Shown here piece by piece: positions 5,574-43,705 of a stretch of DNA of 64,000 nt (positions are counted from its first letter, which is position 1; each line of letters opens with the position of its first letter). The position numbers and the translations under genes were made by a program. This DNA is from Nanobdellota archaeon (GTDB lineage: Archaea; Nanobdellota; Nanobdellia; SCGC-AAA011-G17; UBA489), in the NCBI GenBank assembly GCA_030699455.1, contig JAUYMN010000008.1, positions 6,271 to 70,270 of the forward strand, in the 5' to 3' direction. Below the pieces are notes generated by a model. That model was not told the DNA's origin. It saw only the letters and a list, made by a program, of their open reading frames with translations, and searched no databases.

Positions 5574-5672
5574 ATTGCACATAAGCCCTGTTAAACTCTC
5601 CCGTTAGGGATTGAATTTTAGTGCAATGTTCCGTAGCGAAGCGGAGGAAAAATTCAAAGTAAAAAAATCGGC
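5574..5672 (+). repeat. junction-core repeat with conserved hairpin
   Basis: attgcacataagccctGTTAAACtctcccgttaggga, then stem ttgaatttt (5611-5619) / aaaattcaa (5649-5657). The loop begins agtgcaa, as in copy 30615-30722. Confidence 0.65.
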
Positions 5673-5723
5673 GTATCAAGGGCGTAACCCCATTGGTTAA
5701 AAGAATATTGGGTTTGGGTTATA

Positions 5724-19900: not shown

Positions 19901-20047
19901 GAGGTGAATTGCCGCTTCTATTACTATAACTGCAACTATCATTGCGATTACTGTTTTTGGGCTTATCTCAAATTTAGTTTTATATTCATCAAAATACCTT
20001 ACTAATCCACCACCTGATTGGGGCATCTGAATTTTTTCTTGTACCAT
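19892..20047 (-). CDS. secG: preprotein translocase Sec61-beta (archaeal SecG)
   Basis: GGGLVRYFDE followed by a C-terminal TM. Start trimmed to MVQEK. Confidence 0.7.
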   Translation of the reverse strand: MVQEKIQMPQSGGGLVRYFDEYKTKFEISPKTVIAMIVAVIVIEAAIHLLG

Positions 20048-20085
20048 GATTATATGTTTTAGAGAGTATTTAAAAGGGTTTTGAT

Positions 20086-20193
20086 TCAAATTAAACCTAT
20101 TTCTGAACAGTCTATGCTATAGCCACAATTATCACAAACTCTTTTGCAGTGCCTATCCTTTAATTGATGATTGCAAACAATGCAGTTTTCCAT
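20086..20193 (-). CDS. small zinc-ribbon protein (35 aa)
   Basis: MENCIVCNHQ...CKRVCDNCGYSIDC with several CxxC pairs. Below the ORF-track cutoff. Confidence 0.3.
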   Translation of the reverse strand: MENCIVCNHQLKDRHCKRVCDNCGYSIDCSEIGLI

Positions 20194-20275
20194 TTTTATT
20201 GTTACATTATACAAATTTTATTAAGCTTTTGTTAGTCTTGATATGTGCCCATAGTTGTGTGAGCCTTGAAAAAAA

Positions 20276-20625
20276 GTTAGGAGTGAATAAGCCACCTTCT
20301 GTTGGTCTTCTTTTCACGAAGATAAGAGTAGACCATTCCAACATTCAACTTAGCGTCTTAATGACTTGCACCAACCAGGGCTCGTTGTTTCATCGTTTCC
20401 TTTGCAAACGCTCGACTGGTTATCTTATTGTTTTCACAAACAATGTCAGGTATCATTACATACCCATGGCTTTTAATCCATGCAATCTCTTTGCTTAACA
20501 AACAAAGGCCGTGTTGTTTCTGGACGGTTGCCATCCATTTCTGGATCTTCTCAAAGAGAAGTGGTTTTTAATGGTGGGCGGACTTTCCTCAGTGTAAACA
20601 CCGATAGTTGGATGACACTCCTAAC
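20276..20625 (-). ncRNA. rnpB: RNase P RNA
   Basis: CR-I GAGGAAAGTCCGCCC and CR-V ACAGAAGGTGGCTTA. P4 pairing AAGUCCGCC/GGUGGCUU has the bulged U. P1 is a perfect 10 bp, GTTAGGAGTG/CACTCCTAAC. TTTTTAAA lies about 27 nt upstream. Confidence 0.8.
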
Positions 20626-20733
20626 TATTGTATTGGTTTAAACTGCTTTAAAAAGGTATTGAAAAGGTCCGTAGGACGACGCCCCTCTCTCTTTTTGTTT
20701 CTTTTTTCTAAAAAGAAAAGTAAGCAATCAAAA

Positions 20734-20832
20734 AATTGAATATAATTTCTGTTATGCTCTCCGAACGAAGTGAGAACCTGCAAGGCGTGGCAAAATCTCT
20801 TCGAGATTTTGCGTTCAGAAGGTCGCTCGGTG
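20734..20832 (+). repeat. junction-core repeat, full unit (core + hairpin + right arm)
   Basis: aattgaatataatttctGTTATGCtctccgaacgaagtgag, then a 10-bp stem gcaaaatctc/gagattttgc (20790-20812), then right arm gttcagaaggtcgctcgg. Confidence 0.7.
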
Positions 20833-20853
20833 GTGGGACGGTGCGCGTTTTAT

Positions 20854-21609
20854 TTAATATGGACTCTTCCAAAAATAATTGAAATATTTCATGAAACTTT
20901 CTTTAATTCTGTCAGATTCTAATACAAATGCAAAAGATTGTTTTCCCCACAAAATTTGTACTACTTTATTTCCAAAAATAATTGCTACCATGGGCACATA
21001 CATATCTTTTGGGAGTGAGCAATATTTATAGTAAGCTTTCTTGTGTTGGCTTATTTTTTCTGGTTCTAAATCTTTCAAATAAGTACCATAACTAACTAAA
21101 TCATTCATCATATGCTTTTTTTTAATTCTTCGTTCCATCCAATGTTCAAACCATACTTGTAAATTTTCAGGAACTGTTTTGTAGTTTTCAAAGCTATTTC
21201 CTCCTAACCAAAATGATTCTTTATGCTCAAGTATCTCTTCAAAAAGCGTTTTGATTGCCTCATTGCCCCTAAAAATTTCTGCCATTATTTCAGGTTTGGA
21301 GAGTTCAAAAAGTTTTTTTATGTCGGGAATTTGTTCTTCTAGTTCCTTTAATCTTTTCTCTTTTCCCTTTATTTCTTCAAGAAGCTTATTTGGGTGTGTG
21401 CATTGGTAAGTTCTCTTGCCTTTTTCAATAGTATAAGAAACAAGCCCTGCTTCTATTAATTTATTCAGAATGTCATAAATATTTCTTCGTTCTATTCCTG
21501 TTTTTTCTTGTATTTTGTTAATAGTGGATATGCCCAATTCTAGAACTGCCGAATAAACTTTGATCTGCCCATCGCTTAAACCTAATTCCTTCAGATTTTT
21601 AAGTATCAT
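20854..21609 (-). CDS. TrmB-family transcriptional regulator (paralog 2)
   Basis: MILKNLKELGLSDGQIKVYSAVLELG...RRNIYDILNKLIEAGLV. Start trimmed to 21609. Confidence 0.75.
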   Translation of the reverse strand: MILKNLKELGLSDGQIKVYSAVLELGISTINKIQEKTGIERRNIYDILNKLIEAGLVSYTIEKGKRTYQCTHPNKLLEEIKGKEKRLKELEEQIPDIKKLFELSKPEIMAEIFRGNEAIKTLFEEILEHKESFWLGGNSFENYKTVPENLQVWFEHWMERRIKKKHMMNDLVSYGTYLKDLEPEKISQHKKAYYKYCSLPKDMYVPMVAIIFGNKVVQILWGKQSFAFVLESDRIKESFMKYFNYFWKSPY

Positions 21610-21697
21610 ATGGTGTTGTATAATACCACATATATTTAAATATTTAGTCATATCAATACTATTAACAAGTAACAACAAATGTAAGGAGGTAATCAAA

Positions 21698-22147
21698 ATG
21701 AACATAAAAAAAATTTATGAAGCAGGCAAAAAAGGATTGGCGGGAATTGTTTTAGCAGGTACTCTCGCGTTAAATGGTTGTGTAGATCACCAAGAGCATA
21801 CAACTCAAGAATTGCCTTATTTTGCAGTTAAAAACATAGAAACAGTTTTGGCAATGGATCATGGAGAACGACCAAGACATGTAGAAAATGGTGTGGTTTA
21901 CACGCCAATGGTAAGATTTGACACTCAATTTCCACAATTGGAAGGAGTAAAAGCACAACAAGGAGATAAAACATACATTTTTCGGTCAAGCATGTATGAT
22001 GGACGTTTAACTGAAATAAGCAACACAGAAGGCGAAGCATATCTAAGAGTTGGAATGCTACCGGAAGAATTTAATTCCTTTAACGACGGAGTAGGAAAAG
22101 GTGCTGACACAAGCTATGCCAAGTTTATAGAAGAATTTAACAAATAA
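21698..22147 (+). CDS. lipobox lipoprotein, hypothetical
   Basis: MNIKKIYEAGKKGLAGIVLAGTLALNGC has a signal peptide and lipobox Cys. SD-like aaggagg upstream; divergent from TrmB paralog 2. Confidence 0.6.
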   Translation: MNIKKIYEAGKKGLAGIVLAGTLALNGCVDHQEHTTQELPYFAVKNIETVLAMDHGERPRHVENGVVYTPMVRFDTQFPQLEGVKAQQGDKTYIFRSSMYDGRLTEISNTEGEAYLRVGMLPEEFNSFNDGVGKGADTSYAKFIEEFNK

Positions 22148-22190
22148 AGATAAATTTTTATTTTTTTATTTTTTAACGCGCCGTCCACGT

Positions 22191-22207
22191 GGGGGGGGGG
22201 GGGGGGG
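22191..22207 (+). repeat. G17 homopolymer
   Basis: 17 consecutive G in an AT-rich genome, directly after the right inverted-repeat arm 22175-22188. Confidence 0.9.
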
Positions 22208-22232
22208 TTGGTAGGGAGAAGAGTGACCTTCT

Positions 22233-22378
22233 GAATTACGCCTAACCCTTGTTATACAAGGGTGAGGAGCGAAGCGACGAAAGCGTAGCGTCCCCAAGTG
22301 AGCGAAGCGAACGCAGCGTAAGGCACAGGGACACGTTCCATCAAGTGAGCACAGCGAACCATCCAGAACAAGAATCAA
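22233..22378 (+). repeat. junction-core repeat (variant) plus GC-rich iteron block
   Basis: gaattacgcctaacccttGTTATACaagggt places GTTATAC in the loop of a 6-bp stem. Two 17-mers follow: aagtgagcgaagcgaac (22296-22312) and aagtgagcacagcgaac (22343-22359). Confidence 0.65.
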
Positions 22379-22442
22379 GGGGACACTCTCTTGATGGTGC
22401 TTACACACTTGTAACTTTTTATTGAGAAAACGGGGGCAACTA
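22379..22442 (+). repeat. left arm of 64-bp perfect inverted repeat
   Basis: Exact reverse complement of 24939-25002. Includes the TAG stop of the TrmB gene. Confidence 0.95.
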
Positions 22443-23162
22443 CAATGGCTTTGCTATACCCCACATCACATTAAAATAATTTGTAAATGCTTTAGCACTA
22501 TCTTCACTTATGATTTGTATTGTAGTAATCTCTTTCTCTTGAATGATACCAATAATAACAACATCTTCATAGATCATATAACCCACTCGTGCTATAAAAC
22601 TTTTTGGTAGAACACGAATATTATCTTTTTTCATTATTGAGAGAAGATCTTTTACTTCTGGAATATTAGGCTGCACTGTTTTCATTTTCATCTTTTTTGC
22701 TTTTTGCTCAATGAATTTTCTAGAAAATTTTAATGCTTTAAAGAAAAATAATCCCCCGCCAACCCAGTAAACATTCTTATTTGATTTTACTGCTTCTTCA
22801 ACTACTGCTTTTGCACCCTCTAATCCAACAAAAACGTTGATTTTTGGTGATTTTTCTTCTGATTCATAAAAACTTTTTAGGTTTGGAAGAGCATCATTGA
22901 GAATTTTGTTTTTTTCTTCAAGAAATATCTTAAGACTTTCTGGATTTGTGGCTTGAAAGTATTTCACTCCATTTTTTATTTTGAAATTGACAATTCCTCT
23001 GCGAAGAAGTATATTTAGGTTGTCATAGATTGTTCTTCGGTGTACTTCTGTTTCTTTAGATAATTGAACAGCAGTAGATTCTTTTTTCTTAAGAAGAGCG
23101 AGGTAAATTTTTGCTTCTGTTTCTGAAAGTCCAATTTTTCTTAGTGAGTCTTGTAAATCCAT
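22440..23162 (-). CDS. TrmB-family transcriptional regulator (paralog 3)
   Basis: LRKIGLSETEAKIYLALLKKK...HRRTIYDNLNILLRRGIV. Confidence 0.8.
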   Translation of the reverse strand: MDLQDSLRKIGLSETEAKIYLALLKKKESTAVQLSKETEVHRRTIYDNLNILLRRGIVNFKIKNGVKYFQATNPESLKIFLEEKNKILNDALPNLKSFYESEEKSPKINVFVGLEGAKAVVEEAVKSNKNVYWVGGGLFFFKALKFSRKFIEQKAKKMKMKTVQPNIPEVKDLLSIMKKDNIRVLPKSFIARVGYMIYEDVVIIGIIQEKEITTIQIISEDSAKAFTNYFNVMWGIAKPL

Positions 23163-23262
23163 TCTAACATATATTATTCTTAGTTTTATTTAAACTTTTC
23201 GTTATTGGTGTGGAAATCCCCACACATTGATTTATATTCTTAAATATGACTACTAAAGAATA

Positions 23263-23940
23263 ATGAACACCCAACTAGATAATCCATTTAGAGAAGAGCA
23301 AATTGCAGAGATTTATTCTAGGCATAGCCATAAATATCATGCTCATCAAAGAGCATTTGAAGCATTTAGGACACTTATCCCTCTAGATAGCCGAGTTTTA
23401 GAAATTGGCGTAGGCACAGGTGCTTTTACAGATTTATTGCTTTCTGTTGGATATGATGTTAAAGGTATTGATAGATCAGAAAAAATGCTGAAAAGAGCCT
23501 CTGAACGAGTTCGTGCTTTATCTGAACATTGCGATTTGTTGGATCATGATTCTTCCGGAAAATATGATGTTGTGGTTTCGCATAGTGGTGGATTTACATT
23601 CAAAAGAGGAAAATTTGAGACGTATTATCAAGATGAAGACAATTTAGAGAAAGCACTTCAAAAAGTTCATAATGTTCTTGTTGATGAAGGAAGATTTCTT
23701 GTAGATAAAGGAGAACATGAATCCGAGATAGATTTAGGAGATGGAACAATATTCTCCGTAGAACAAGAAGATAGAGAAAAATCTCGGATTTATACTTATA
23801 CTTTCAAGCAAGGAGATAGAGAGATTACGAAGCAACAAAGACGTTTAGTATTTTTTCCAGAAGAATTGCAAAGAATGAGTTCTCCGTATTTTAATTGGAA
23901 TTTTGCAAATAAACTTTGGATAATTGGTGAAAGGATATGA
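23263..23940 (+). CDS. class I SAM-dependent methyltransferase
   Basis: VLEIGVGTGAFT motif I and DVVVSH. Confidence 0.8.
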   Translation: MNTQLDNPFREEQIAEIYSRHSHKYHAHQRAFEAFRTLIPLDSRVLEIGVGTGAFTDLLLSVGYDVKGIDRSEKMLKRASERVRALSEHCDLLDHDSSGKYDVVVSHSGGFTFKRGKFETYYQDEDNLEKALQKVHNVLVDEGRFLVDKGEHESEIDLGDGTIFSVEQEDREKSRIYTYTFKQGDREITKQQRRLVFFPEELQRMSSPYFNWNFANKLWIIGERI

Positions 23941-24941
23941 TGAATCAATTAAGACAATCATTAAGAGAATTTAAGAGTGATTTTGATAGAAAAATTGTCG
24001 CATATTTTGATGCAAAAATTGGTGAACAAGCAAATCCGGAGTTGAAAGAAGTTTTTGGTCATCTGAAAGATTATGTTTTAGCAGGGGGGAAACGTCTTAG
24101 ACCGAATATTCTTTACAGAATAAATCAAGAATTCAAACAATTAGATGGAATTGATAATGTTCTTCTTGCTTTTGAGTTTCTTCATAATTCTACGTTAATT
24201 GATGATGATGTGATAGATGAACATGATACAAGAAGAAGCAGAGCAACTCTTCCAACAGTTTATGGTGATAGAAATTATAGAGGAGATTTTGCTGCTTTGT
24301 TAAGCGCTAACTTACTAAGAAATGCAGGAATTGATTTAATTGTAAATTCAGAATTATCAAGAGATTTTCAAAGAGAATGTGGGTTGGCGTATCAAGACAT
24401 AGGAAGAAGCATAGATTTAGCACAAATTCTCGATTTAGAATATAGGGGAAGATTGAATTTATTAGAAGAAGATTATATTGCTCAAGCAGATTTAGTGGCA
24501 GCAAGATTTATCGCTTATATGTTTCAACTCTGCACACCTGAAAAATACAAAGAAGAATTTTATCAAGTAGGAAGAAATTTAGGGATTGCATTTCAGTTAG
24601 CAGATGATTTAATGGATATAGATGCAACAAAGCAGAAAGGTCGTGGTCTTGGCTCAGATATTAGAGAAGGAACACCAACATTATTATCAATTTATGCTTC
24701 AGAAAGATTAGAGGGTGTAGATAGAGAAAAGTTTAGAGGATTATTTGGCAAAAAAGATTTAACAGAGGATGAATTACAATGGATTATTACTCAATATGAA
24801 AACAGTGCAGTCATAGAAGATTCAAGAGAAAGAGTTAGAGATTACATTAATAGAGCAAATCACATTTTATCAGATGTGGGAATTCCTCAAGATCATTGGA
24901 TAGTCGCATTTGGTGAGTATAGTTTACAGCGATCTCATTAG
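23937..24941 (+). CDS. polyprenyl (trans-isoprenyl) diphosphate synthase
   Basis: First DDxxD (LIDDDVID) and second DDxxD (LADDLMD). ATGA overlap with the methyltransferase gene. Confidence 0.85.
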   Translation: MMNQLRQSLREFKSDFDRKIVAYFDAKIGEQANPELKEVFGHLKDYVLAGGKRLRPNILYRINQEFKQLDGIDNVLLAFEFLHNSTLIDDDVIDEHDTRRSRATLPTVYGDRNYRGDFAALLSANLLRNAGIDLIVNSELSRDFQRECGLAYQDIGRSIDLAQILDLEYRGRLNLLEEDYIAQADLVAARFIAYMFQLCTPEKYKEEFYQVGRNLGIAFQLADDLMDIDATKQKGRGLGSDIREGTPTLLSIYASERLEGVDREKFRGLFGKKDLTEDELQWIITQYENSAVIEDSRERVRDYINRANHILSDVGIPQDHWIVAFGEYSLQRSH

Positions 24942-25002
24942 TTGCCCCCGTTTTCTCAATAAAAAGTTACAAGTGTGTAAGCACCATCAAGAGAGTGTCC
25001 CC
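24939..25002 (+). repeat. right arm of 64-bp perfect inverted repeat
   Basis: Exact reverse complement of 22379-22442. Includes the TAG stop of the prenyl synthase gene. Confidence 0.95.
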
Positions 25003-25027
25003 CATCATTTTTAGTGTCCCGAGTAAT

Positions 25028-25130
25028 ATGTCGTATAATCGCTGTTAAACTCCCCGAACGGAACGAAGTGAGGTGAAAGCGCAACGTGGTCGACCGAAGG
25101 GAGAGGTTCGGTGCTCGCCGAAAGTTTGTT
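25028..25130 (+). repeat. junction-core repeat, full unit without payload
   Basis: atgtcgtataatcgctGTTAAACtccccgaacggaacgaagtgag. ccgaac pairs with gttcgg and aaac with gttt. Ends at the next GTTATAG (25131). Confidence 0.65.
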
Positions 25131-25200
25131 GTTATAGTAGTTGTTGAAAAATATATTATTAACTTTCAAGTAGTAAAAGAAACGAAAGATTTATAAAGTA
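25117..25200 (+). repeat. cassette 5' flank repeat A, copy 1
   Basis: About 90 percent identical by eye to 30709-30792. Contains TTGTTGAAAAATA, AACGAAAGAT and the TTTATAAAG TATA box. Identity stops 3 nt after the TATA box. Confidence 0.85.
25190..25198 (+). promoter_or_regulatory. TATA box (TTTATAAAG)
   Basis: About 25 nt upstream of the ATG at 25219. Confidence 0.5.
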
Positions 25201-25218
25201 TAGCAAATAACTATCAAT

Positions 25219-25605
25219 ATGAAAATGAATAAAACTTTAACTAGCATCGTTTTGGCAGGAGCTTTAGCTCTTAGTGGCTGTAGTGGAAAAGTCGACGATT
25301 CTAGATATGATTTCAAGGGAAAACTTGGAGATGAACAGGTAGAATTTATACGACAAGGCAATTTTTTGGTCTCCTCTGTAGATGATGGGTTATATTTAAC
25401 AGTTACAAAAGCAGATGGAAAAACTATAACTTATATCGACAGAGGAAATGATTTGAAACTAGATGAAGTAATAATCGGATACGAAGTTTATATAAATGAT
25501 GCTGTTGGACAAAACGCATTAGAATTGGCACAACAACAATTTGATGGTTATTTGACAAAAATTCTTGAATATAAACAGCAAAAAGCTGTTGATGCAATCA
25601 AGTAA
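25219..25605 (+). CDS. lipobox lipoprotein, hypothetical
   Basis: MKMNKTLTSIVLAGALALSGC has a signal peptide and lipobox. Confidence 0.6.
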   Translation: MKMNKTLTSIVLAGALALSGCSGKVDDSRYDFKGKLGDEQVEFIRQGNFLVSSVDDGLYLTVTKADGKTITYIDRGNDLKLDEVIIGYEVYINDAVGQNALELAQQQFDGYLTKILEYKQQKAVDAIK

Positions 25606-25763
25606 ATCTTTCGTTCTATAATTTTTATTTTTCAACAATTTCATTAAAATTTTGTTAGGCAAAGTTACGAAGTAATTTTGTGAAAGTTTTCTGTTATGAT
25701 TTTAACGAAGATAACAACATTAGAATTTTTGGTTTTAACCTCTGTGAGGCGAGCCCCGAATTG
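25606..25763 (+). repeat. cassette 3' flank repeat B, copy 1
   Basis: Starts immediately after the stop codon and is near-identical to 31127-31283. ATCTTTCGTT and TATTTTTCAACAA are inverted copies of elements in repeat A. Contains a degenerate core at 25693. Confidence 0.85.
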
Positions 25764-25856
25764 AACTTAATGCCTGTTATATTCTTGAACGGAACGAAGT
25801 GTAATGAGACGAGCAAAGCGAAGAGTTTTGCGTTAGCAAGATTGTACATAATCGCT
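25759..25856 (+). repeat. junction-core repeat, full unit without payload
   Basis: aattgaacttaatgcctGTTATATtcttgaacggaacgaagtg, hairpin gcaaa/tttgc, and right arm gcgttagcaagattgtacataatcgct abutting the next GTTATAT. Confidence 0.65.
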
Positions 25857-25921
25857 GTTATATTCTTCGAATGAAATGAGGCCAAAATCTGAAGGATTTT
25901 GAGTTTCTGATGGCACAAATT
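25841..25921 (+). repeat. junction-core repeat, left arm of the hicBA cassette
   Basis: attgtacataatcgctGTTATATtcttcgaatgaaatgag, hairpin caaaatc/gattttg (25883-25901), then the left inverted-repeat arm tttctgatggcacaaatt (25904-25921). Confidence 0.65.
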
Positions 25922-25929
25922 ATATAAAT
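25921..25929 (+). promoter_or_regulatory. TATA box (TATATAAAT) for hicB
   Basis: About 26 nt upstream of the ATG at 25951, directly after the left inverted-repeat arm. Confidence 0.45.
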
Positions 25930-25950
25930 CATTACATATGGAATAATATT

Positions 25951-26163
25951 ATGAAATATAGAATAACAATGGAACAAGACGAAAAAGGCATTTATGTTGT
26001 AGAATGTCCAATTCTTCCTGGATGTATATCTGAAGGTTTAACTAGAAAGGAGGCCTTAGATAATATTAAAGATGCTATTAAAGGATATATAGACAGTCTA
26101 AAAAAGCATAATGAGCCAATACCTCTATCAATTGATGAGGAAATGGTGGAAGTAAATGCCTAA
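25951..26163 (+). CDS. hicB: HicB-family antitoxin
   Basis: 70 aa, YVVECPILPGCISEGLTRKEALDNIKDAI (UPF0150/HicB fold pattern). Overlaps the hicA start. Confidence 0.8.
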   Translation: MKYRITMEQDEKGIYVVECPILPGCISEGLTRKEALDNIKDAIKGYIDSLKKHNEPIPLSIDEEMVEVNA

Positions 26164-26385
26164 ACTTCTTTCGAATCTTTCTGGCTTAAAACTTGTAAAA
26201 TTATTTTCTAAATTAGATTATGAATAGATCATCAAACCGGCAGTCATATAATATTAAGACAGAATAAATATCCATTTAGAAGGTTAACTATACCAAAACA
26301 TAAGTCACTAGCAAAAGGCACATTAAGAGCAATTATAAAACAATCTGGACTAACAAAAGAGGAATTTTTAAAGTTTCTAACCTAA
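26156..26385 (+). pseudogene. hicA: hicA toxin, frameshifted
   Basis: MPKLLSNLSGLKLVKLFSKLDYE then TAG at 26225. The homologous remainder (GSHIILRQ...TIPKHKSLAKGTLRAIIKQSGLTKEEFLKFL) continues in the -1 frame from 26224 to 26385. Confidence 0.7.
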
Positions 26386-26459
26386 TTGTGCCATCAGAAA
26401 TTGTACATAACTTCTGCTATATTGTCTGGGGTTTATCCCCAGATTAACCCGTTAGGGTT
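26384..26459 (+). repeat. right arm of the hicBA cassette plus degenerate junction core
   Basis: aattgtgccatcagaaa is the inverted partner of 25904-25921. Then ttgtacataacttctGCTATAT, hairpin tctgggg/ccccaga (26425-26443), and aacccGTTAgggtt. Confidence 0.6.
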
Positions 26460-26661
26460 GAAGTATGACGCAAGAACCAACATTAAGGAGTTTTGAACAA
26501 ATTGACCGTAACTGATTAGCTGGCGAGACTAAGCCACAGTTGCTAATAGGTTGCCTTTCATAATGGGATGCTGTATGGCTTCAGAAAATTACAAGAGAAG
26601 CTATTGAAGGGAATAAGGAGAAAAGTACGAAGCCGAGATTGATTTAGACATCATCTTTTGG

Positions 26662-27588
26662 CTAATTCCATTTGAGCATCTCATTATAAAATGCTTCTGC
26701 TTGTTTTTGATCAAATTTATCTGGGTCTCCTAAACACCTTGTTTCAACAAAATTCTTGTTCTCATCGTAAATGTTCCATATAACATACTTGTAGGTCTTT
26801 CCTATATCTCCAGTTTCAGAAATTATTGTTTTTTCAATGTATGCATTAACATTGCCCATTCCAAAGAAATAAGTGTAACCTCCGCAGTAGTACTTGTTAA
26901 GGTTTTCACCTTCTTTAGTTCCCTTTCTACAATTAGCAGATCCTTTTATTGTCCATCCATCATAAGTTTTCCCACTTATATCTGTGGTTTCATAAGGTGT
27001 TCCTTCATTGTGAAATTTCATTTCCACATTAATCTGTGGGCAATTAGATTTAAGGGTTTTTGAAAATTTCTCAGTACCTTTTTTGAATATACCTTCAAAC
27101 TGGTTATTTGATTTTGTTGTCAGATTGGTTTCAAAATTAGAACTACTCCCATAATGAATTTCTTGTTGATCTGAATTGTGTATCAGGTATAATGTAATTG
27201 CAATCACAAAAATCCACAAAAATAAATTTGAATGATCCATTCTAGATATCCTTACAAGATATGCTACCAAAACCAGTCCAACAGCTGTAAAGATAATGCT
27301 TGCCACATAATCAATAATTCCAAGATAATTAGCAAGAATAAATAGCACCCATATCGCACCAGTATTTATTACTCCCCAAAACAAAAAGGATTTGTCAACA
27401 ATAAATTTTTGTTTTGTAGTAAATATCTTTGCAAATTTTGCTAATATTGTTAATCCAAAACCCATAAAAATCAGCTGAAAGAAACTGTTCTCAATGTTTA
27501 AGTAATTTAAGAGATAACCCAAAACATACAATGAAATAGAGTGAATGACAATCCAAATTAAAGACCATTTCAAACTAAAGTTTTTCAT
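26662..27588 (-). CDS. membrane protein with extracytoplasmic C-terminal domain, hypothetical
   Basis: 308 aa with about 5 N-terminal TM helices, then a soluble Cys-containing domain. Confidence 0.5.
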   Translation of the reverse strand: MKNFSLKWSLIWIVIHSISLYVLGYLLNYLNIENSFFQLIFMGFGLTILAKFAKIFTTKQKFIVDKSFLFWGVINTGAIWVLFILANYLGIIDYVASIIFTAVGLVLVAYLVRISRMDHSNLFLWIFVIAITLYLIHNSDQQEIHYGSSSNFETNLTTKSNNQFEGIFKKGTEKFSKTLKSNCPQINVEMKFHNEGTPYETTDISGKTYDGWTIKGSANCRKGTKEGENLNKYYCGGYTYFFGMGNVNAYIEKTIISETGDIGKTYKYVIWNIYDENKNFVETRCLGDPDKFDQKQAEAFYNEMLKWN

Positions 27589-27960
27589 TTTTGTTGCGTT
27601 TCATATTCTGGAATTCTTCTTTTCACTTGCTTCCGCCCACATGAACCCAATTTTTTTTGAAGATAGAAATCATCTTTTCTCTAGCTCCATAATCTGTCTT
27701 AATTAAGAGATATAAAAAGTTTGTCTATGGATATTTTGCAAAGTTAAAGAATGGTATCACCTTTTTTCTTAAGAAAAAGAGTGGAAATGGGAGCAAACTC
27801 CTAAAAGGAGGTACCCACCATGAATGGCATTTGAGACAGCAAATGCCATTCAAGAGATATAACAATTATTACTAGTAAATTATTCCGTTCACATGATTTC
27901 TAAGTTTTATTCTATCCATAATGCCAAAATTGATAGGACGTTCGTACTTCAATGTATGTA

Positions 27961-28509
27961 TCAAGTAAAAATTTCCATAATTTTTTCAATAGAAATTTCT
28001 TGGTTAATTATGGATAAAAGAATTATTAAAAAAATAATAACAATGATTGATAGAATTATTTTTGATGCTATGGTTTTTCTTTCATATTTTTCTTCATTCG
28101 GCTGGTTTTTTTGTTCTATAGTTGGTGTTGGTTTTATGTAATCTCCTTTTTTAAATTTCTTAGTAAATTTTTCAATATCCCTATCCAATTGTTCATTCTT
28201 AAATTTTTTTTCTATTGATACTTTTTTTCTTCTGTTTTTTATTTTATTTATTCTGCCATAATCTCCATTGCATCCATGTTCTTCTGGAAGTCTGCAATTT
28301 TCACAATGAGATTCATCACAGTAATTACACACAAAAGGTATATGATTTATTTCTTTTTCACAAGAATCACACTTATTTTTAGGTCTTGGTTTTCTTCTCC
28401 GCCCCATTCTTCTTTGGTTCCAAGCATGTTCATCAAAATCCTCTTCTTCATACTCTTCCCTATCATTCTCATCTTCTTCTCTATCCCATCTCTTAGAAAA
28501 AGTTCCCAT
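27961..28509 (-). CDS. AN1-like zinc-finger protein with C-terminal membrane anchor
   Basis: CDSCEKEINHIPFVCNYCDESHCENCRLPEEHGC is close to the AN1 pattern. Charged N-terminus and a C-terminal TM. Confidence 0.55.
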   Translation of the reverse strand: MGTFSKRWDREEDENDREEYEEEDFDEHAWNQRRMGRRRKPRPKNKCDSCEKEINHIPFVCNYCDESHCENCRLPEEHGCNGDYGRINKIKNRRKKVSIEKKFKNEQLDRDIEKFTKKFKKGDYIKPTPTIEQKNQPNEEKYERKTIASKIILSIIVIIFLIILLSIINQEISIEKIMEIFT

Positions 28510-28511
28510 TT

Positions 28512-29252
28512 TCAGCAGAAATTTTGTGTTACGTAGATATCATACCAATTTCCTTCTGAACTCTCAAGAACAGAAACTCCAATTCCATGGTTCCTATGGT
28601 GGGGAGTAAGTATATTTTCTCTATGTCCTGGGCTACTCATCCAACCATTGACTATATTTTCGGCTACTTCTCCCATTGTACAAGGATGGGAATGAGTAGC
28701 ACCTACAACGATCAGTTCTCTAGTGATGTCATAATAATCCAATGCAAGATTCTCAGCTCCCTCGGATAAATAGGTTTCGTATTGTTGTGTAGTAATTTCA
28801 TAAATGCCATATTCACCTTCTTCTATCTCAGTTTCTTCTGGATAGTATATTGTATCGATTGGAACTGAACAATAATAATTTGCTTGTTTGTATCTATAGT
28901 CAAATCTATTTCCTTCAAGATCTTCATGTTCAAAATGTTTGTTTTTGGCCATATAGTCACTATACTTTCTTGCAATTTGGTTTAATTCTTCATCCCATTT
29001 TAACATATTAAGTTTGGCATTCTTTCTTTCAACCCTTACCTTCCTATGTATCAACAATTCTAATTCTTCAACATTGATATCTTCACATTGAATATTGCTT
29101 TCAAAAGAGTTGGTTTCATCTTTATAGCTTTCTGTGCTAATATCATCAAAATCCAAAAAATAAATACCTACCAAAAAAATAGAACCAATAACTAAAAGTG
29201 GAATAATCCGGCTTGTTGGAATTATAACTAAAAAGCCTTTCTTTCTATACAT
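28512..29252 (-). CDS. CAP/SCP/PR-1-like domain protein, membrane-anchored
   Basis: N-terminal TM, with KWDEELNQIARKYSDYM, GAENLA and NGWMSSPGHRENIL motifs. Confidence 0.75.
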   Translation of the reverse strand: MYRKKGFLVIIPTSRIIPLLVIGSIFLVGIYFLDFDDISTESYKDETNSFESNIQCEDINVEELELLIHRKVRVERKNAKLNMLKWDEELNQIARKYSDYMAKNKHFEHEDLEGNRFDYRYKQANYYCSVPIDTIYYPEETEIEEGEYGIYEITTQQYETYLSEGAENLALDYYDITRELIVVGATHSHPCTMGEVAENIVNGWMSSPGHRENILTPHHRNHGIGVSVLESSEGNWYDIYVTQNFC

Positions 29253-29475
29253 TCTGCCATTGACGGGATATAGGTCTCTTTTAAATTTTTAGGTCCTGGG
29301 TAACTGATTAGCTACTTTTGAAACGGAGTTCAATTCAGCCTTCTTTTGTAGAATTTTTGTATTATACGGACAAAAAGGATGTTAAATTAGCCTCTATTTG
29401 ACATAGCTAATCAGTTACAATTGACCAAAAGATTTAAATATGTGTAATCACATTTCTACACATAGGTGATCAAAA

Positions 29476-29700
29476 ATGACTAATTTAACATTAGCAATTC
29501 CAGAAGATTTGCATGAAAAAATGAAACATCACTCTGAAATAAGATGGAGTGAAGTAGTGAGAAAATCAATCTCTCAGAAGATTGAATTATTAGATGCAAT
29601 GAATAAAATTGCAAGTAAAAGTAAGTTAACAAAGAAAGATGTAGATGAAATCTCAAAGAAAATTAAAGCAGAAACATTTGATGAGTTAAACAAAAAATGA
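29476..29700 (+). CDS. vapB: VapB-like antitoxin (ribbon-helix-helix-like)
   Basis: 74 aa, LTLAIPEDLHEKMK N-terminus. ATGA overlap with the PIN gene. SD-like GGTGAT upstream. Confidence 0.6.
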   Translation: MTNLTLAIPEDLHEKMKHHSEIRWSEVVRKSISQKIELLDAMNKIASKSKLTKKDVDEISKKIKAETFDELNKK

Positions 29701-30116
29701 TCATCATTATTGATGTTAATGTTTTTCTTTCTGCTTTAATTAAGGATTCAACTTCAAGAGAAATTTTGTTAACATACGAGCAAGAATTTTGTTTTCCAGA
29801 GAGATCATTGCAGAAAATACGAAAGCATAAATCTCTTATTCAAAAGAAGTCTGAACTTTCTGATTTAGATTTTCTGAAGTTGTTTCATTCTTTATTAAAG
29901 TTTATCAGAATCATTCCTGATGAAGAATTATTAGATCAATGGGATGAAGCGATGAAAATAATGGCACACATTGATGAAGAAGATGTGACTTTTATTGCAG
30001 CAGCATTGAGTCAGAATAATGCAGTAATCTGGTCTGATGATAAGCATTTTGAGAAACAGGATAAAGTGTTTACACTAAAAACAAAAGATTTGGTCAATTT
30101 ATTTGAGAATAACTAA
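29697..30116 (+). CDS. vapC: PIN-domain toxin
   Basis: IIIDVNVFLSALI N-terminal acidic residue, EEDVTFIAAA, and WSDDKHF. Confidence 0.75.
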   Translation: MIIIIDVNVFLSALIKDSTSREILLTYEQEFCFPERSLQKIRKHKSLIQKKSELSDLDFLKLFHSLLKFIRIIPDEELLDQWDEAMKIMAHIDEEDVTFIAAALSQNNAVIWSDDKHFEKQDKVFTLKTKDLVNLFENN

Positions 30117-30156
30117 TTTCAAAACGCCTCTCTTTTCTTTGTTGGTTCTGAGTAAT

Positions 30157-30235
30157 ATTCAATATAATGCCTGTTATGTTCTCCGAACGAAGTGAGGACA
30201 AGCGAACGAAGTGAGTGAAGAGTTCAAAAAAGACT
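30157..30235 (+). repeat. junction-core repeat with duplicated iteron
   Basis: attcaatataatgcctGTTATGTtctccgaacgaagtgag. cgaacgaagtgag occurs twice (30184-30196, 30203-30215). Then the left inverted-repeat arm ttcaaaaaagact (30223-30235). Confidence 0.65.
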
Positions 30236-30280
30236 TTCTATGTGGTAATATATCTCAAAAGATATAAACTCCTTAAAAAT

Positions 30281-30595
30281 TTATCTTGGAGAATAAGGTA
30301 ATTGTGGGACAGAATATCGTGTTTTAAATTCTCTATTTATTCTTTCGATCTTGTTATGAATGTACTCCATTTGACCATATAGCCGACAATCTGCGATACA
30401 GTTCTCTTTACCACCACTATCTTGAAACGATTGGTGTGCTTCTTTGAAATCATTATCTAACATTTCTATAAGGGCGTCTAAACCATGGGCTGATATTTTA
30501 TGTTTCATAACTACTAATAAGTTACAAATTATATATAAATCTAACGGTTTTTCTATGGTTCTGACGGGCTTTCTCATGATAATTGAGCTTATCAT
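30281..30595 (-). CDS. hypothetical protein
   Basis: 104-aa ORF bracketed by the 13-bp inverted repeat 30223-30235/30604-30616. On the minus strand, ATTATATTC from the core lies about 27 nt upstream of the start. Confidence 0.4.
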   Translation of the reverse strand: MISSIIMRKPVRTIEKPLDLYIICNLLVVMKHKISAHGLDALIEMLDNDFKEAHQSFQDSGGKENCIADCRLYGQMEYIHNKIERINREFKTRYSVPQLPYSPR

Positions 30596-30614
30596 GATGC
30601 TACAGTCTTTTTTG

Positions 30615-30722
30615 AATTGAATATAATTTCTGTTAGTTTCTCCGAATGAAATGAGAACGAGATTTTAGTGCAACGATGCTGAAGGCAAAAATCTCGAGTT
30701 CTGGGCTTGCCGAAAATTCGTT
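30615..30722 (+). repeat. junction-core repeat, full unit without payload
   Basis: aattgaatataatttctGTTAGTTtctccgaatgaaatgag. Stem cgagatttt (30658-30666) / aaaatctcg (30688-30696) with loop agtgcaacg... and an extrahelical ag. Right arm gcttgccgaaaattcgtt. Confidence 0.7.
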
Positions 30723-30792
30723 GTTATTGTAGTTGTTGAAAAATAAGTTATTAACTCTCAAGTGGTAAAAGAAACGAAAGATTTATAAAGTA
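30709..30792 (+). repeat. cassette 5' flank repeat A, copy 2
   Basis: Partner of 25117-25200. Confidence 0.85.
30782..30790 (+). promoter_or_regulatory. TATA box (TTTATAAAG)
   Basis: About 29 nt upstream of the ATG at 30815. Confidence 0.5.
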
Positions 30793-30814
30793 ATTAGTTT
30801 TCGTAAGTATTACA

Positions 30815-31126
30815 ATGAAACTATATCAAAAAATTGCAACATATACATTTATTGGTGCTGCAAGTTTAGGATTATTTGGTTGTGATAAAAAAGATTCACA
30901 ACGAGCAACTGAACAACCATTACCAGCTGAAATGAGAACATATGAAGTTAGCCCATATGTATTTGGTAAATCTAAAATTAATTATGACCATTTACCAAAT
31001 CTAGGATGGTCGGACATGATTGGGGTAACTTGCGGAGATTTAGATGGTGATGGAGATTTAGAAGTGATTGTTGCAACAAAAGATGGATTAACAATTTACG
31101 AAAACAGAACAGAACAAAAAAGATAA
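30815..31126 (+). CDS. lipobox lipoprotein with FG-GAP-like repeat
   Basis: IGAASLGLFGC signal and lipobox-like Cys, plus CGDLDGDGDLEVIVATKDG. Confidence 0.6.
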   Translation: MKLYQKIATYTFIGAASLGLFGCDKKDSQRATEQPLPAEMRTYEVSPYVFGKSKINYDHLPNLGWSDMIGVTCGDLDGDGDLEVIVATKDGLTIYENRTEQKR

Positions 31127-31283
31127 ATTCTTTCGTTCTATAATTTTTATTTTTCAACAATTTCTTTAAATTTTTGTTAGACAAAGTTACGAAGTAATTT
31201 TGTGAGTTTTCTTTTATGATTTTAACGAAGATAACAACATTAGAATTTTTGGTTTTAACCTCTGTGAGGTGAGCCCCGAATTG
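31127..31283 (+). repeat. cassette 3' flank repeat B, copy 2
   Basis: Partner of 25606-25763. Similarity ends at gagccccgaattg, the last recognisable array sequence. Confidence 0.85.
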
Positions 31284-31478
31284 TGTTGAACAATATATAT
31301 GCGAAGAAGCACGAATTCCTATATTTTAGACGTTATGAAGGCATTATTTGGAAGATTGAGTTAGAAAAACTGTTTTCTTTTATGTGTAGTAAAAACAACT
31401 TATTTTTGACTTTTAACCGCATTTTCTTCGATTTTTTTGAATTAAGTTTTTTTAAGAGTTTATAGTAACTGGTTTTAA

Positions 31479-32184
31479 TGGCTTTGGATGTGCTTTATAA
31501 CATGAAAAGAGAGTTGTTTAGGAGGAAGCTGTCTCCAAGAACTGTTAAAACATACCTGCTGTATGTTAGATTATTTCTTCGAGCAAATAAAGACATCAAG
31601 AAACTCGCGAATCTGCTTTAGGCTTCTTCGCAGTATTTACTACAATTCTTGATTAAATCTAACCATCAATTCTCACTTAAGTCTTTTTTATCAACCGCCA
31701 TCATAACTTTCATAAAATCATTAGGAACCAGAAGTTTATCAAACATAGATGACGTTAACTTTACAGCTGGTGAAAAGGCTTAAATAATTTTGCGGGATGG
31801 ATTGAGTACACTGAAGCGCTACAATAATGGTCTACTCAATTTTAATCTTTATGGGAGAAGAAATTCAGAATCAATACACTAGTGGGGTATGAACTTAAAA
31901 TTATTGCTAAAGGCAATGCGCCTGGAATTTGACAGGTTAATTCTACAACATATGCTCCTGACGAAATTGCAGTTTCTGCCATGAAGTATGTTTAAGATGC
32001 TATTGAAAATGATGGAGCATTAATGAGGCAGTCTGATAGAATTACTACAATAGACAGGCCTATGATTAAAATTGTTTGCTCTGATAGTTACACATTAGTG
32101 CACCCAGCAACTATTGAAGATATGTTAAAGTACAGAAGAGGGCATGGGACAATGGCAAGAAAGCTGGCTCCATCAAGACCATAA
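31479..32184 (+). pseudogene. tyrosine recombinase/integrase, heavily decayed
   Basis: N-terminal SAM-like domain signature KLSPRTVKTYLLYVRLFL, then an in-frame TAG at 31620-31622. The frame continues (FLIKSNHQFSLKSFLSTAIITFIKSLG) to a TAA at 31782. Downstream fragments in shifted frames resemble catalytic-domain blocks (LLNFNLYGRRNSES; LKIIAKGNAPG; RRGHGTMA). No ORF of 60 aa or more across 31.47-32.19 kb. Confidence 0.6.
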
Positions 32185-32189
32185 CAGGC

Positions 32190-32963
32190 TTAAACAAATT
32201 CTATGAATAACAGGAGATACATAATTGCTATGCCTAATAAAAATATTGACAATTCTGATAATGATTGTGTAATGCCTTTGTCTTTATGCAGATGTATCTG
32301 CGGTATTAAATCAGATGCAGCTATGTAAATAAATCCTCCAGATGTTATTGGTATAAGATAATTCGGCAGTGATGATAAATTTGAGCTTAATAACAAAGTT
32401 ATGACTGCTCCTAAAATTGCGGTCAATGCTGTTATAAAATTAAGAAATACTGCTCTTGTTTTTTTAAAGCCTGCATGCAATAATACTCCAAAATCTCCAA
32501 TTTCCTGCGGTATTTCGTGCAATATGACTGCTATTGTTGTTGCAATTCCAAGAGGAACGCTTACTATGAAACTTCCTGCAATCAATATTCCATCAATAAA
32601 ATTGTGCAATGAATCTCCAACAAGGTTCATTATGGCGTATGAAGGTGTTTGTTTTTTGTGATGGTGCAAGTGACAATGCCCCCAATGAACAAATTTTTCT
32701 AATATGAAAAATATTATGATCCCCAATAAAATAAATAATGAAATATTTAGTGTAAATCCTGATTCTGCTGCTTCAGGGATTAAGTGTATGAATGCATCTC
32801 CAAGCATAACTCCTGCTGAAAGACTTACTAATAAAATTATTGTCTTATCTAGATGATTTTTTTTGAATGAAATGCTTGCAAGACCAACAAGGGAAATTAA
32901 GCTTACTATAATCACGCTTAGTAAGGTATACCCCCAAATGTTCACCTCTTGAATACCAAACAT
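32190..32963 (-). CDS. ZIP-family metal transporter
   Basis: HNFIDG, HEIPQEIGDFG, a His-rich loop HCHLHHHK, and multiple TMs. Confidence 0.85.
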   Translation of the reverse strand: MFGIQEVNIWGYTLLSVIIVSLISLVGLASISFKKNHLDKTIILLVSLSAGVMLGDAFIHLIPEAAESGFTLNISLFILLGIIIFFILEKFVHWGHCHLHHHKKQTPSYAIMNLVGDSLHNFIDGILIAGSFIVSVPLGIATTIAVILHEIPQEIGDFGVLLHAGFKKTRAVFLNFITALTAILGAVITLLLSSNLSSLPNYLIPITSGGFIYIAASDLIPQIHLHKDKGITQSLSELSIFLLGIAIMYLLLFIEFV

Positions 32964-39332: not shown

Positions 39333-39389
39333 AAATGGACTGATTTTTGTCGTTTTTTTTTAAAATGGACTGATTTTTGTCGTTTTTTT
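39333..39389 (+). terminator. tandem duplicated T-rich element (2 x about 30 nt)
   Basis: aaatggactgatttttgtcgttttttt occurs at 39333 and again at 39363, each ending in a T-run typical of archaeal terminators. Confidence 0.4.

Positions 39390-43670: not shown

Positions 43671-43705
<35 letters not shown>

Follow-up and report, generated by a model that had tools for sequence, protein, structure and literature searches.

Two lipoprotein loci of a Nanobdellota archaeon as probable copies of a single-gene, Xer-type mobile cassette

Two small lipoprotein genes in the stretch of Nanobdellota DNA shown above, 64,000 nucleotides of contig JAUYMN010000008.1 that we call the window, have nearly the same sequence on either side and share almost nothing in between. 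The question this raises is whether different genes are exchanged at 2 fixed places, or whether genes and flanks go about together. We give a probability of roughly 60% to the answer that both loci are copies of a family of 0.6- to 0.8-kb single-gene mobile cassettes of the Xer type in DPANN archaea of the Woesearchaeota type. An Rfam scan marks the window as archaeal, with RNase P RNA at 20276-20625 (minus strand), large subunit (LSU) rRNA at 41218-44819 (minus strand) and tRNA-Ala, and because it carries these genes we take it to be chromosomal. Its GC content is 34%.

Two loci with the same flanks

We call the sequence upstream of each gene flank A and that downstream flank B; the window holds just 2 copies of the pair. 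In a repeat search and with blastn, flank A of the first locus (25106-25200) matches that of the second (30698-30792) at 89% over 95 nt, the best high-scoring segment pair being 84 nt at 91.7% (E = 1.5 × 10−27), and flank B (25604-25763 against 31126-31283) matches at 95.5% over 157 nt (E = 4 × 10−69), in keeping with the near-identity that the initial annotation had judged by eye. Sharp breakpoints had been described as well. By MAFFT, identity does collapse directly after TTTATAAAGTA and stays at random level up to flank B, with none of the gradual decay expected of diverged homologs, but it resumes at the TAA stop codon itself and not, as had been stated, after it; the stop codon and a bias in the last codon are part of the conserved 3' module. 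The encoded proteins of 128 and 103 aa are as unrelated as claimed, with only a signal peptide and lipobox in common (BLASTP, 26 aa, E = 0.06), and a profile-profile alignment of the 2 families by hhalign, using 16 and 8 homologues, has a probability of 1%. Since the profiles do not match, these are not diverged homologues, and the breakpoints are real.

Two inverted repeats had been read as a clamp around the exchanged segment. Both are present with equivalents in the second locus, the inner one at 25181-25193/25603-25615 (13 nt, 100%) and the outer one at 25132-25153/25626-25647 (22 nt, 82%), but the role of a clamp is not supported. The inner pair, AACGAAAGAT/ATCTTTCGTT, is the lineage's general promoter motif, consisting of a transcription factor B recognition element (BRE) and TATA box, together with its inverted copy, and the outer repeats belong to a long imperfect palindrome made by the 2 cassette ends. 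Flank A, taken whole, corresponds imperfectly to the reverse complement of flank B, with collinear arm pairs at 25107-25119/25748-25760, 25127-25142/25704-25719, 25148-25166/25661-25679 and 25181-25193/25603-25615.

The repeated unit is also longer than had been noted. It starts at about 25028 and 30616 with a recombination-type site and a hairpin module, and ends at 25770 and 31290, so that the dif-like half-sites bounding each cassette lie outside the segment first described. Every part of both cassettes is on the plus strand. Cassette 1 opens with a left junction site (25028-25055) made of the foreign left arm ATGTCGTATAA, the spacer TCGCTG and the cassette right arm TTAAACTCCCC, scoring 20.7 with a position weight matrix (PWM). 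Then comes a GC-rich hairpin module, "D" (25056-25105), with the motif AGCGCAACG (family consensus AGTGCAAYG), which is 79-94% conserved in 3 of the comparison loci introduced below (L003, L004 and L005). Flank A (25106-25200) contains the subterminal inverted repeat TTCGGTGCTCGCC at 25107-25119, GTTGTTAT/GTTGTTGA repeats, and a promoter with BRE CGAAAG at 25182-25187 and TATA box TTTATAAA at 25189-25196. The open reading frame (ORF) of the 128-aa lipoprotein runs from 25219 to 25605, and flank B (25603-25770) has, in order, the TAA stop, the inverted BRE ATCTTTCGTT, T5 runs at 25622-25626 and 25628-25632, a hairpin at 25660-25680, ATAACAAC, the subterminal repeat GGCGAGCCCCGAA at 25748-25760, and the cassette left arm ATTGAACTTAA at 25760-25770.

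Cassette 2 is built the same way. Its left junction site at 30616-30643, ATTGAATATAA TTTCTG TTAGTTTCTCC (PWM 36.5), has a right arm of a second type, type ii, and is followed at 30644-30792 by a type ii hairpin module (GAGATTTT..AGTGCAACG..AAAATCTC) and flank A (30698-30792), with the BRE at 30775-30780 and the TATA box at 30782-30789. The 103-aa lipoprotein is encoded at 30815-31126; a match to one FG-GAP/VCBS-like repeat, which the initial annotation had proposed, is found, but below threshold. Flank B (31124-31290) ends in the degenerate cassette left arm ATTGTGTTGAA at 31280-31290, and then CAATAT ATATGCGAAGA.

A family of cassettes in DPANN archaea

For comparison we used stretches from other assemblies, numbered in the range L001-L099. 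In a set of species-representative genomes, a flank A pattern matched 20 stretches, of which about 15 are true matches, and these are metagenome-assembled genomes (MAGs) of Woesearchaeota, Nanoarchaeota and Pacearchaeota, bar one record titled Methanosarcinales. A flank B pattern matched 74 metagenome contigs, and neither pattern had any match in a viral contig collection. Consensus sequences run with blastn across the loci gave 80 hits for flank A, 100 for flank B and 47 for the upstream hairpin module D, from which 59 complete units of flank A, ORF and flank B were parsed. About 90 independent assemblies, produced by many projects, have this architecture. One of these stretches, L001, reproduces window positions 29419-31158 at 99.9% and ends 32 nt into flank B.

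A cassette with a truncated flank B is found on a 389-kb contig, L016 (CAYHAM010000001.1), whose record is titled "uncultured Methanosarcinales archaeon". The 8-kb stretch around it has 33.7% GC, resembling the DPANN loci; the contig may be mis-binned or mislabelled, or a putative host lineage may have received the cassette by transfer.

Homologues of lipoprotein 1 (L002, L003) and of lipoprotein 2 (L004, L005) are in entirely different gene neighborhoods, and all 4 bear flank A, flank B and the upstream GC-rich segment. The flank B of L004 is 92.5% identical to the window copy, with a protein 64% identical, and its cassette (L004:8570-9250) has a GC content of 33.8% against 43.6% for the contig, a contrast in composition suggesting that it was horizontally acquired. 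Among 35 non-redundant cassettes, pairwise identities have medians of 89% for flank A, 87% for flank B and 52%, which is the random level, for the coding sequence, and flank identity is uncorrelated with that of the coding sequence (Spearman 0.02 and 0.16). Homogenization of flanks within a genome is not supported, as the 2 window cassettes, at about 91.5%, are no closer to each other than cassettes are across genomes.

What the cassettes carry

The expectation that the same flanks would be found with other inserts is borne out, and well beyond lipoproteins. The complete units hold 53 distinct cargo proteins of 74-207 aa (median 123) in at least 25 unrelated groups, and simple criteria sort them into 22 lipoproteins, 19 hydrophobic or transmembrane proteins and 12 soluble proteins. 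A site reserved for surface lipoproteins, which is how the 2 loci were initially seen, is not what this distribution shows. The part of that proposal that stands is that like flanks hold unrelated genes; the part that does not is that these are fixed expression sites, since promoter, gene and 3' module travel together.

Cargo 1 has homologues at 37-91% identity in other DPANN contigs by BLASTP; an exact look-up did not return the 128-aa protein, which the homology database does contain. An AlphaFold2 model of it predicts a small β-sheet and helix fold with a predicted local distance difference test (pLDDT) score of 78, and a comparison of that model with the Protein Data Bank (PDB) gave no fold match. 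The signal peptides of the lipoproteins ("MKLYQKI..." and "M.I.KTLTSIVLAGALAL...") are found joined to different mature domains, and because of these combinations we conclude that recombination also occurs inside cassettes.

Across the family the ATG is either 18-22 nt from the end of flank A, which in relation to the TATA box is a leaderless geometry, or 30-34 nt from it, in which case a GGAGG is present. Nearly all 59 units have an ORF whose stop is the TAA at the start of flank B. The last residue is E, K or R in 47 of the 53 cargos; the last codon has the form R-A-R, with A at position -2 in 45 of the 53. That codon (within 25597-25608 and 31118-31129, for example), the stop and ATCTTTCG together give an inverted, BRE/TATA-like CGAAAGATTTAYTY on the minus strand, possibly an antisense promoter.

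Flanks and hairpin modules

Flank A ends in CGAAAG-ATTTATAAA, and its BRE/TATA motif also precedes other genes of the window, at 23187 (minus strand), 29426 (plus) and 62333 (minus), making 5 matches against 0.35 expected. Flank B has at its start the stop codon, then the BRE in inverted copy and 2 T5 runs, which are of the kind that act as archaeal terminators. Its hairpin covaries at 3 pairs, with CG/UA at 24:22, AU/GC at 30:20 and AU/GC at 25:24, and 45 of 52 sequences retain a G.U pair. From the alignment, the kept G.U pair reads as a signal specific to one strand that points to RNA or single-stranded DNA.

Flank A at its outer end, and flank B close to its end, carry a subterminal repeat of 13 nt, which comes in 3 fully complementary versions: TTCGGGGCTCGCC/GGCGAGCCCCGAA, TTCTGGGYTTGCC/GGCAARCCCAGAA and TTTTTTTACTGCC/GGCAGTAAAAAAA. 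The hairpin module keeps the AGTGCAAYG motif between helices and by eye has 3 variants in which the helices are preserved and the sequences differ. RNAalifold found no consensus on the MAFFT-aligned modules because the 3 variants do not align by sequence. The module could be a recombination accessory or a noncoding RNA (ncRNA). An "empty" palindrome, with flank A joined straight to flank B, was looked for and not found. At the gathering and E-value thresholds, Rfam reports only RNase P RNA, LSU rRNA and tRNA, leaving the flanks and hairpin modules without a match, and for 20000-32500 with E up to 5 it adds to RNase P only the chance-level MIR5298 (E = 2.4) and Afu_254 (E = 3.3).

Two contigs that are otherwise 99.6-100% identical (L051:3767-3850 and L044:10406-10409) are distinguished by a hairpin module of 84 bp, AACAG...CTGTT, which L051 has and L044 lacks. 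This is a presence/absence polymorphism right after a cassette; the AATT on both sides is ambiguous as a sign of target-site duplication.

The boundary sites

The sites bounding the cassettes follow a 28-bp motif, ATTGNAYATAA-N6-TTAYNTTCTCC, with an 11-bp arm, a 6-bp spacer and an inverted 11-bp arm. The dif site of Pyrococcus abyssi with which Cortez et al. 2010 did their experiments (oligo Pab-Dif-Top) is ATTGGATATAA TCGGCC TTATATCTAAA (PMC2958812). The window site at 20735 agrees with it in 10/11 positions of the left arm and 4/11 of the right, 15/28 in total, keeping the inner TTAT; the Pyrococcus dif shares 14/28 with the bacterial consensus (PMC2958812). The pattern ATTGNAYATAANNNCTGTTA, with up to 2 mismatches, has 7 matches in the window against 0.28 expected, all on the plus strand, and the PWM finds 8, adding the one at 25028, while no shuffle reached even a score of 8. 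A chromosomal dif is a single copy at the replication terminus; since there are 8 co-oriented copies here, we call the window sites dif-like and not dif itself.

Inversion of the arms is imperfect, at 8/11 both for the site ATTGAACTTAA TGCCTG TTATATTCTTG and for the cassette arms ATTGAGTTTAA/TTAAACTCCCC. At the left border of a cassette, a foreign left arm is followed by a spacer, mostly TCGCTG, and the cassette right arm TTAAACTCCCC; at the right border, the cassette left arm ATTGAGTTTAA is followed by a foreign spacer and a foreign right arm. The arms come in types that covary at both ends, ...AAACTC/GAGTTT..., ...AGTTTC/GAAACT... and ...AGCCGA/TTGGCT..., defining 3 cassette lineages; these half-site types (AACTC, GTTTC, GCCGA) and the 3 versions of the subterminal repeat change together at both ends. 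Cassette 2 is of lineage ii at its left end (TTAGTTTCTCC; TTCTGGGCTTGCC) and lineage i-like at its right end (GGTGAGCCCCGAA; degenerate arm ATTGTGTTGAA). Because its ends differ in lineage, it is a hybrid and direct evidence for recombination between backbones.

The sites cut the window from 25.0 to 31.3 kb into a string of modules. Lipoprotein 1 occupies 25028-25760. The right junction of its cassette (25760-25787; ATTGAACTTAA TGCCTG TTATATTCTTG; PWM 33.5; plus strand) is the left site of an empty 81-bp module, 25760-25841, which is a site and hairpins only. Next is a hicB module, 25841-26400, opened by a plus-strand site at 25841-25868, ATTGTACATAA TCGCTG TTATATTCTTC, with hicB at 25951-26163 (HicB by Pfam). 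A weaker plus-strand site at 26400-26427, ATTGTACATAA CTTCTG CTATATTGTCT (PWM 16.9), opens a 3.8-kb block, 26400-30157, to which Pfam assigns a membrane protein, one protein with an AN1 zinc finger, one with a CAP domain, and a pair made of an RHH_12 (VapB-like) antitoxin and a PIN toxin, the RHH_12 and PIN assignments being Pfam hits of L001. A 459-bp module, 30157-30616, opened by ATTCAATATAA TGCCTG TTATGTTCTCC at 30157-30184 (PWM 38.5; plus strand) and containing a 104-aa ORF on the minus strand, comes before lipoprotein 2 at 30616-31290.

Other loci have the same arrangement. All 33 PWM sites in the 8 loci with 2 or more sites are co-oriented within their locus, and L071, L095 and L025 are strings of mostly single-gene modules with sites about 0.5-1 kb apart and genes in either orientation. 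Direct dif-like repeats flank cassette 1 (25028 and 25760) and the L095 cassette (2364 and 1625). At L098:560-1270, a DUF5680 gene adjoining a cassette is flanked by inverted copies of a site with its hairpins (GGCATGCC...), from which some modules seem to be bounded by inverted sites.

Breakpoints of shared cassettes

Movement of the whole unit is indicated by a pair of loci, L050 and L095, that share a 743-bp segment at 100% identity with unrelated DNA on both sides. The segment runs from ATAATCGCTGTTAAAC... to ...GAATTGAGTTTAA and consists of the upstream module, flank A, the coding sequence and flank B. In this pair, and in L008 and L063, the shared sequence starts among the final 2-4 bases of the left arm, next to the spacer TCGCTG; for L050 and L095 it begins at ATAA plus spacer and ends at the last base of ATTGAGTTTAA. 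These borders are exactly what is predicted if a circle carrying ATTGAGTTTAA-spacer-TTAAACTC were integrated with the crossover at the border of left arm and spacer. The borders of the 743-bp unit have no target-site duplication. In L050, the outer arms ATGTCGTATAA ... ATATACGCAAT are inverted relative to each other, which is what a split target site should leave.

Recombinases beside cassettes

The cassettes encode only the cargo ORF. Among 145 cassette-neighbor proteins there are 4 tyrosine recombinases with Phage_int_SAM_4 and Phage_integrase domains. The neighboring recombinases are 270-282 aa long; an ORF of 194 aa in L009 has a partial Phage_integrase match only, to the catalytic domain. 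The L038 recombinase, the only one compared with the PDB, has its best sequence matches to XerA, 5HXY (8 × 10−46) and 4A8E (6 × 10−42), and its match to IntI4 is split into 2 stretches. In 4 of about 45 independent loci (L038, L061, L009 and L098), a xerA-like gene lies directly 3' of flank B on the same strand; these loci have no other shared synteny and carry 4 different cargos. A recombinase gene is within 5-8 kb of the cassette in 2 further loci. Since one such gene is expected in each genome, this amounts to strong enrichment, and it fits the xerA/dif module that some archaea are reported to have (2017 Xer review, PMC5357621). Among the 25 most-matched Pfam families listed (of 162) for the 145 neighbors, there is no transposase family and no reverse transcriptase family.

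A diversity-generating retroelement or a group II intron was also considered and rejected: the listed families include no reverse transcriptase, and the variable part is a whole unrelated ORF and not an A-mutated repeat.

A mechanism and the points against it

Each cassette consists, in order, of a 6-bp spacer and 11-bp right arm, a GC-rich hairpin module, flank A, a variable small ORF, flank B and an 11-bp left arm. Flank A supplies the subterminal repeat and then a BRE/TATA promoter for a leaderless or short-leader mRNA; flank B supplies the stop codon, T-run terminators, the conserved hairpin and the inverse subterminal repeat. Because the cassette arms are inverted copies, an excised circle would carry one complete site, ATTGAGTTTAA-N6-TTAAACTC. 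A host tyrosine recombinase of the XerA type, acting in trans, would recombine the circle site with dif-like sites in the chromosome, presumably crossing over at the border of left arm and spacer, and repeated integration would build co-oriented arrays of modules, as it does with integron cassettes, arrays of integrative mobile elements exploiting Xer (IMEX) and the dif modules of Acinetobacter. The flanks would then be a conserved backbone of expression signals and recombination-accessory sequence, with the gene as interchangeable cargo. Exchange of cargo would most likely go by homologous recombination in the flanks, which are about 90% identical, and for lipoproteins also in the shared signal-peptide segments. 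By analogy to attC and the CTXphi attP, the palindrome of the cassette ends and the hairpins that keep a G.U pair may be a folded single-strand recombination substrate.

Several observations weigh against this reading. The 64-kb window has no recombinase homologue, so the gene for the enzyme has to be assumed to lie in another part of the genome. No excised circle, no circular contig by a terminal-overlap test and no orthologous empty site for a whole cassette was found, and exact look-ups of neighbor proteins for an empty allele of the window sites gave no record for hicB and, for the polyprenyl synthase, records in the same sample only. Of the P. abyssi dif, the right arms reproduce just the inner TTAT. 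Many right junctions are CATCGG+AATTTAACGAA, which is the start of another hairpin module with no recognizable right arm, so not every junction is a canonical site. The ends of the ORFs exactly at flank B, with E, K or R last in 47 of 53, go unexplained; since the stop of every cargo ORF falls exactly at the conserved 3' module, the problem of how cassettes originate arises in a new form. Directly repeated active sites over 25 kb that include RNase P RNA would risk deletions, so site activity must be somehow restrained. Finally, the covarying terminal repeats would fit equally well with a transposase binding both ends.

Alternative explanations

That last point leads to the alternative that survives best, although we consider it improbable: a non-autonomous transposon, such as a cargo-carrying MITE (a miniature transposable element with inverted repeats) or "mobile insertion cassette", moved by cut-and-paste by a transposase encoded elsewhere that binds terminal and subterminal inverted repeats. 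The unit has no recombinase gene inside, its terminal inverted repeats are long and imperfect with flank A approximating the reverse complement of flank B, and its 13-nt subterminal repeats and 8-nt termini covary at both ends as transposase-bound ends do. The AATT on either side of the 84-bp L051/L044 indel could even be a 4-bp target duplication. Against a transposon, the identical cassette of L050 and L095 lacks such a duplication, and the termini have the exact 11-6-11 geometry of an Xer core, completed by the flanking arms. Transposition also does not predict co-oriented site arrays, and in the neighborhoods it is Xer-like recombinases that are enriched beside cassettes, with no transposase among the listed families.

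Perhaps nothing moves at all, and the flanks are a selected promoter and a terminator or 3' element of a regulon of small envelope genes, their likeness kept by selection or gene conversion. In that case, the hairpin module would be a small structured ncRNA with the upstream ATTGAATATAAT motif as its promoter. Flank A does have the genome's general BRE/TATA consensus as its inner part, T-run terminators open flank B, and flank identity is uniformly near 89% whatever the cargo, as under purifying selection; the flank B hairpin, with its G.U pair and compensatory changes, suggests a function at the RNA level on the plus strand. We nonetheless judge this unlikely, since it leaves unexplained the homologous cassettes in non-syntenic positions, the identical 743-bp unit in 2 contexts ending at borders of arm and spacer, the low-GC cassette in a contig of 43.6% GC, the inverted half-sites at cassette ends, and the enrichment of Xer-like genes beside cassettes. 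About 260 nt of near-invariant noncoding DNA also far exceeds what known archaeal promoters and terminators need.

Classical integron cassettes, with IntI and attC, come to mind because of the single-ORF units of 0.5-1 kb in co-oriented arrays, the repeat that is about 90% conserved beside unrelated ORFs, like the Vibrio cholerae repeats, and the toxin-antitoxin modules within the same array; integrons have been reported in Nanoarchaeota MAGs (PMC9668308). We hold this to be very improbable. The motif appears to be a double-stranded 11-6-11 core of the dif type and not a folded attC, the adjoining recombinases are about 280 aa with L038 closest to XerA in the PDB and its IntI4 match split, and the cassettes bear their own BRE/TATA promoter. 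No IntI or attI-Pc platform was seen, and a scan with the general Rfam models found nothing.

Diverged paralogues or an assembly artefact at the repeats, which the similar signal peptides of 2 small lipoproteins and the breaking of short-read contigs at flank B (L001, 32 nt in) might suggest, are refuted for practical purposes by the sharp breakpoints, the hhalign probability of 1% between family profiles, the same architecture in about 90 independent assemblies and the 99.9% agreement of L001 with 29419-31158.

Implications

A wider proposition, which we regard as an even bet, is that DPANN archaea of the Woesearchaeota type have an integron-like cassette system run by the housekeeping XerA, in which co-oriented dif-like sites with a hairpin module delimit mostly single-gene modules, one abundant lineage of them supplies a standard promoter and 3' module through which any small ORF put into it would be expressed, and episymbionts draw on a shared horizontal pool of small surface, membrane and other proteins. 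In the literature, with subscription journals partly covered, we found no description of archaeal elements of this kind; none is in an archaeal tyrosine-recombinase review, the Xer review or the archaeal-integron paper, and looking under Woesearchaeota MITEs, DPANN cassettes, archaeal dif modules and archaeal IMEX turned up no prior description either.

Gene shuffling in bacteria has major routes in modules that exploit Xer and in integron cassettes, and we found no archaeal counterpart of the XerA/dif type described. If the proposition is true, DPANN archaea, with tiny genomes and a dependence on host contact, would have a cassette pool of their own, and small lipoproteins and membrane proteins with a ready-made promoter could plausibly drive surface variation and the flow of genes from lineage to lineage. 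A 28-bp site with about 80 nt of hairpins would be a compact, testable XerA substrate, and the conserved archaeal promoter/terminator scaffold could serve as an expression cassette.

Other features of the window

Two dif-like sites are solitary, both on the plus strand. One, at 20735-20762 (ATTGAATATAA TTTCTG TTATGCTCTCC; PWM 38.4), has a hairpin module and adjoins the RNase P RNA gene. The other, at 5574-5601 (ATTGCACATAA GCCCTG TTAAACTCTCC), is followed by a conserved 140-nt module that may be an ncRNA or an attachment region; the module (5574-5720; ...AGTGCAATG...AAAGTAAAAAAATCGGCGTATCAAGGGCGTAACCCCATTGG) is 87-95% conserved in L034, L099, L020, L062 and L072, and 79% in L041.

A GC-rich hairpin region at 22160-22378, 3' of a third lipoprotein gene (21698-22147), has many mini-hairpins of the GCGAAGC type and a G-run of about 20 nt at 22183-22205. 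Its 22250-22320 part is 87% identical to L020/L079, and a degenerate dif-like motif, CCCTTG TTATACAAGGG, is found at about 22245. Directly after it, a perfect 64-nt inverted repeat (22379-22442/24939-25002) encloses 3 genes in 2.5 kb, its arms starting at the TAG stops of a TrmB-like regulator (minus strand) and a polyprenyl synthase (plus strand). This is a second shared 3' module beginning at a stop codon, and the enclosed segment may be invertible; no copy of it was found among the other loci.

The LSU rRNA match at 41218-44819 spans 3602 nt against a model of 2987 nt; because the span exceeds the model, the gene probably contains one or more insertions or introns. At 39333-39389, the 27-nt sequence AAATGGACTGATTTTTGTCGTTTTTTT is perfectly repeated with a 3-nt gap.

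Comparison with known systems

MITEs and mobile insertion cassettes such as MIC231 of Bacillus cereus are likewise short non-autonomous units with inverted ends and a passenger gene, mobilized in trans. The difference is that here no target-site duplication, cognate transposase or insertion sequence was found around the cassettes, and the ends are halves of a site-specific recombination site.

The XerA/dif dimer resolution of P. abyssi has the same 28-bp 11-6-11 layout, with a left arm ATTGGATATAA to compare with ATTGNAYATAA and the same inner ATAA..TTAT, and the recombinases near the cassettes are XerA-like. Whereas dif is unique and placed at the replication terminus, at least 8 co-oriented copies within 25 kb delimit accessory genes here, and the outer halves of the right arms differ.

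Integron and superintegron cassettes with attC of the VCR type, about 90% identical, also form co-oriented single-ORF arrays, with a conserved recombination-associated repeat beside small unrelated genes that are mostly unknown and a hairpin element beside the crossover point; how new cassettes originate is unexplained in both. The archaeal cassettes differ in that no IntI, attC or attI/Pc platform is seen, the 11-6-11 core is duplex, and each has its own promoter and terminator.

IMEX, such as CTXphi, TLCphi, VGJphi and the gonococcal genetic island, are flanked by direct dif-like repeats and have no integrase of their own, and their crossover is on one side of the spacer. Some of them lie beside a presumed primary site, and 4 of the archaeal cassettes adjoin xerA; the folded inverted repeats that act in the CTXphi attP may have a parallel in the palindrome of the cassette ends. 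Unlike these phages and islands, which are 5-57 kb at one bacterial dif, the archaeal units are single-gene, 0.6-0.8 kb and at many sites, and they are absent from the viral contig collection.

The pdif modules of Acinetobacter, bounded by 28-bp dif-like XerC/XerD plasmid sites, are small, often with 1-2 genes including toxin-antitoxin pairs, and have no recombinase inside, the host Xer being presumed to act on them; the same modules are found in different contexts. Their sites alternate as C/D and D/C inverted pairs on Rep_3 plasmids, whereas the archaeal sites are direct and their arrays are on a chromosome with rRNA, RNase P RNA and aminoacyl-tRNA synthetase genes. The archaeal sites resemble the dif of a single recombinase, XerA, and the modules carry a promoter/3' scaffold and a hairpin module. 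On the reading preferred here, the archaeal system works like integron cassettes, IMEX and the Acinetobacter dif modules, and is a member of none of them.

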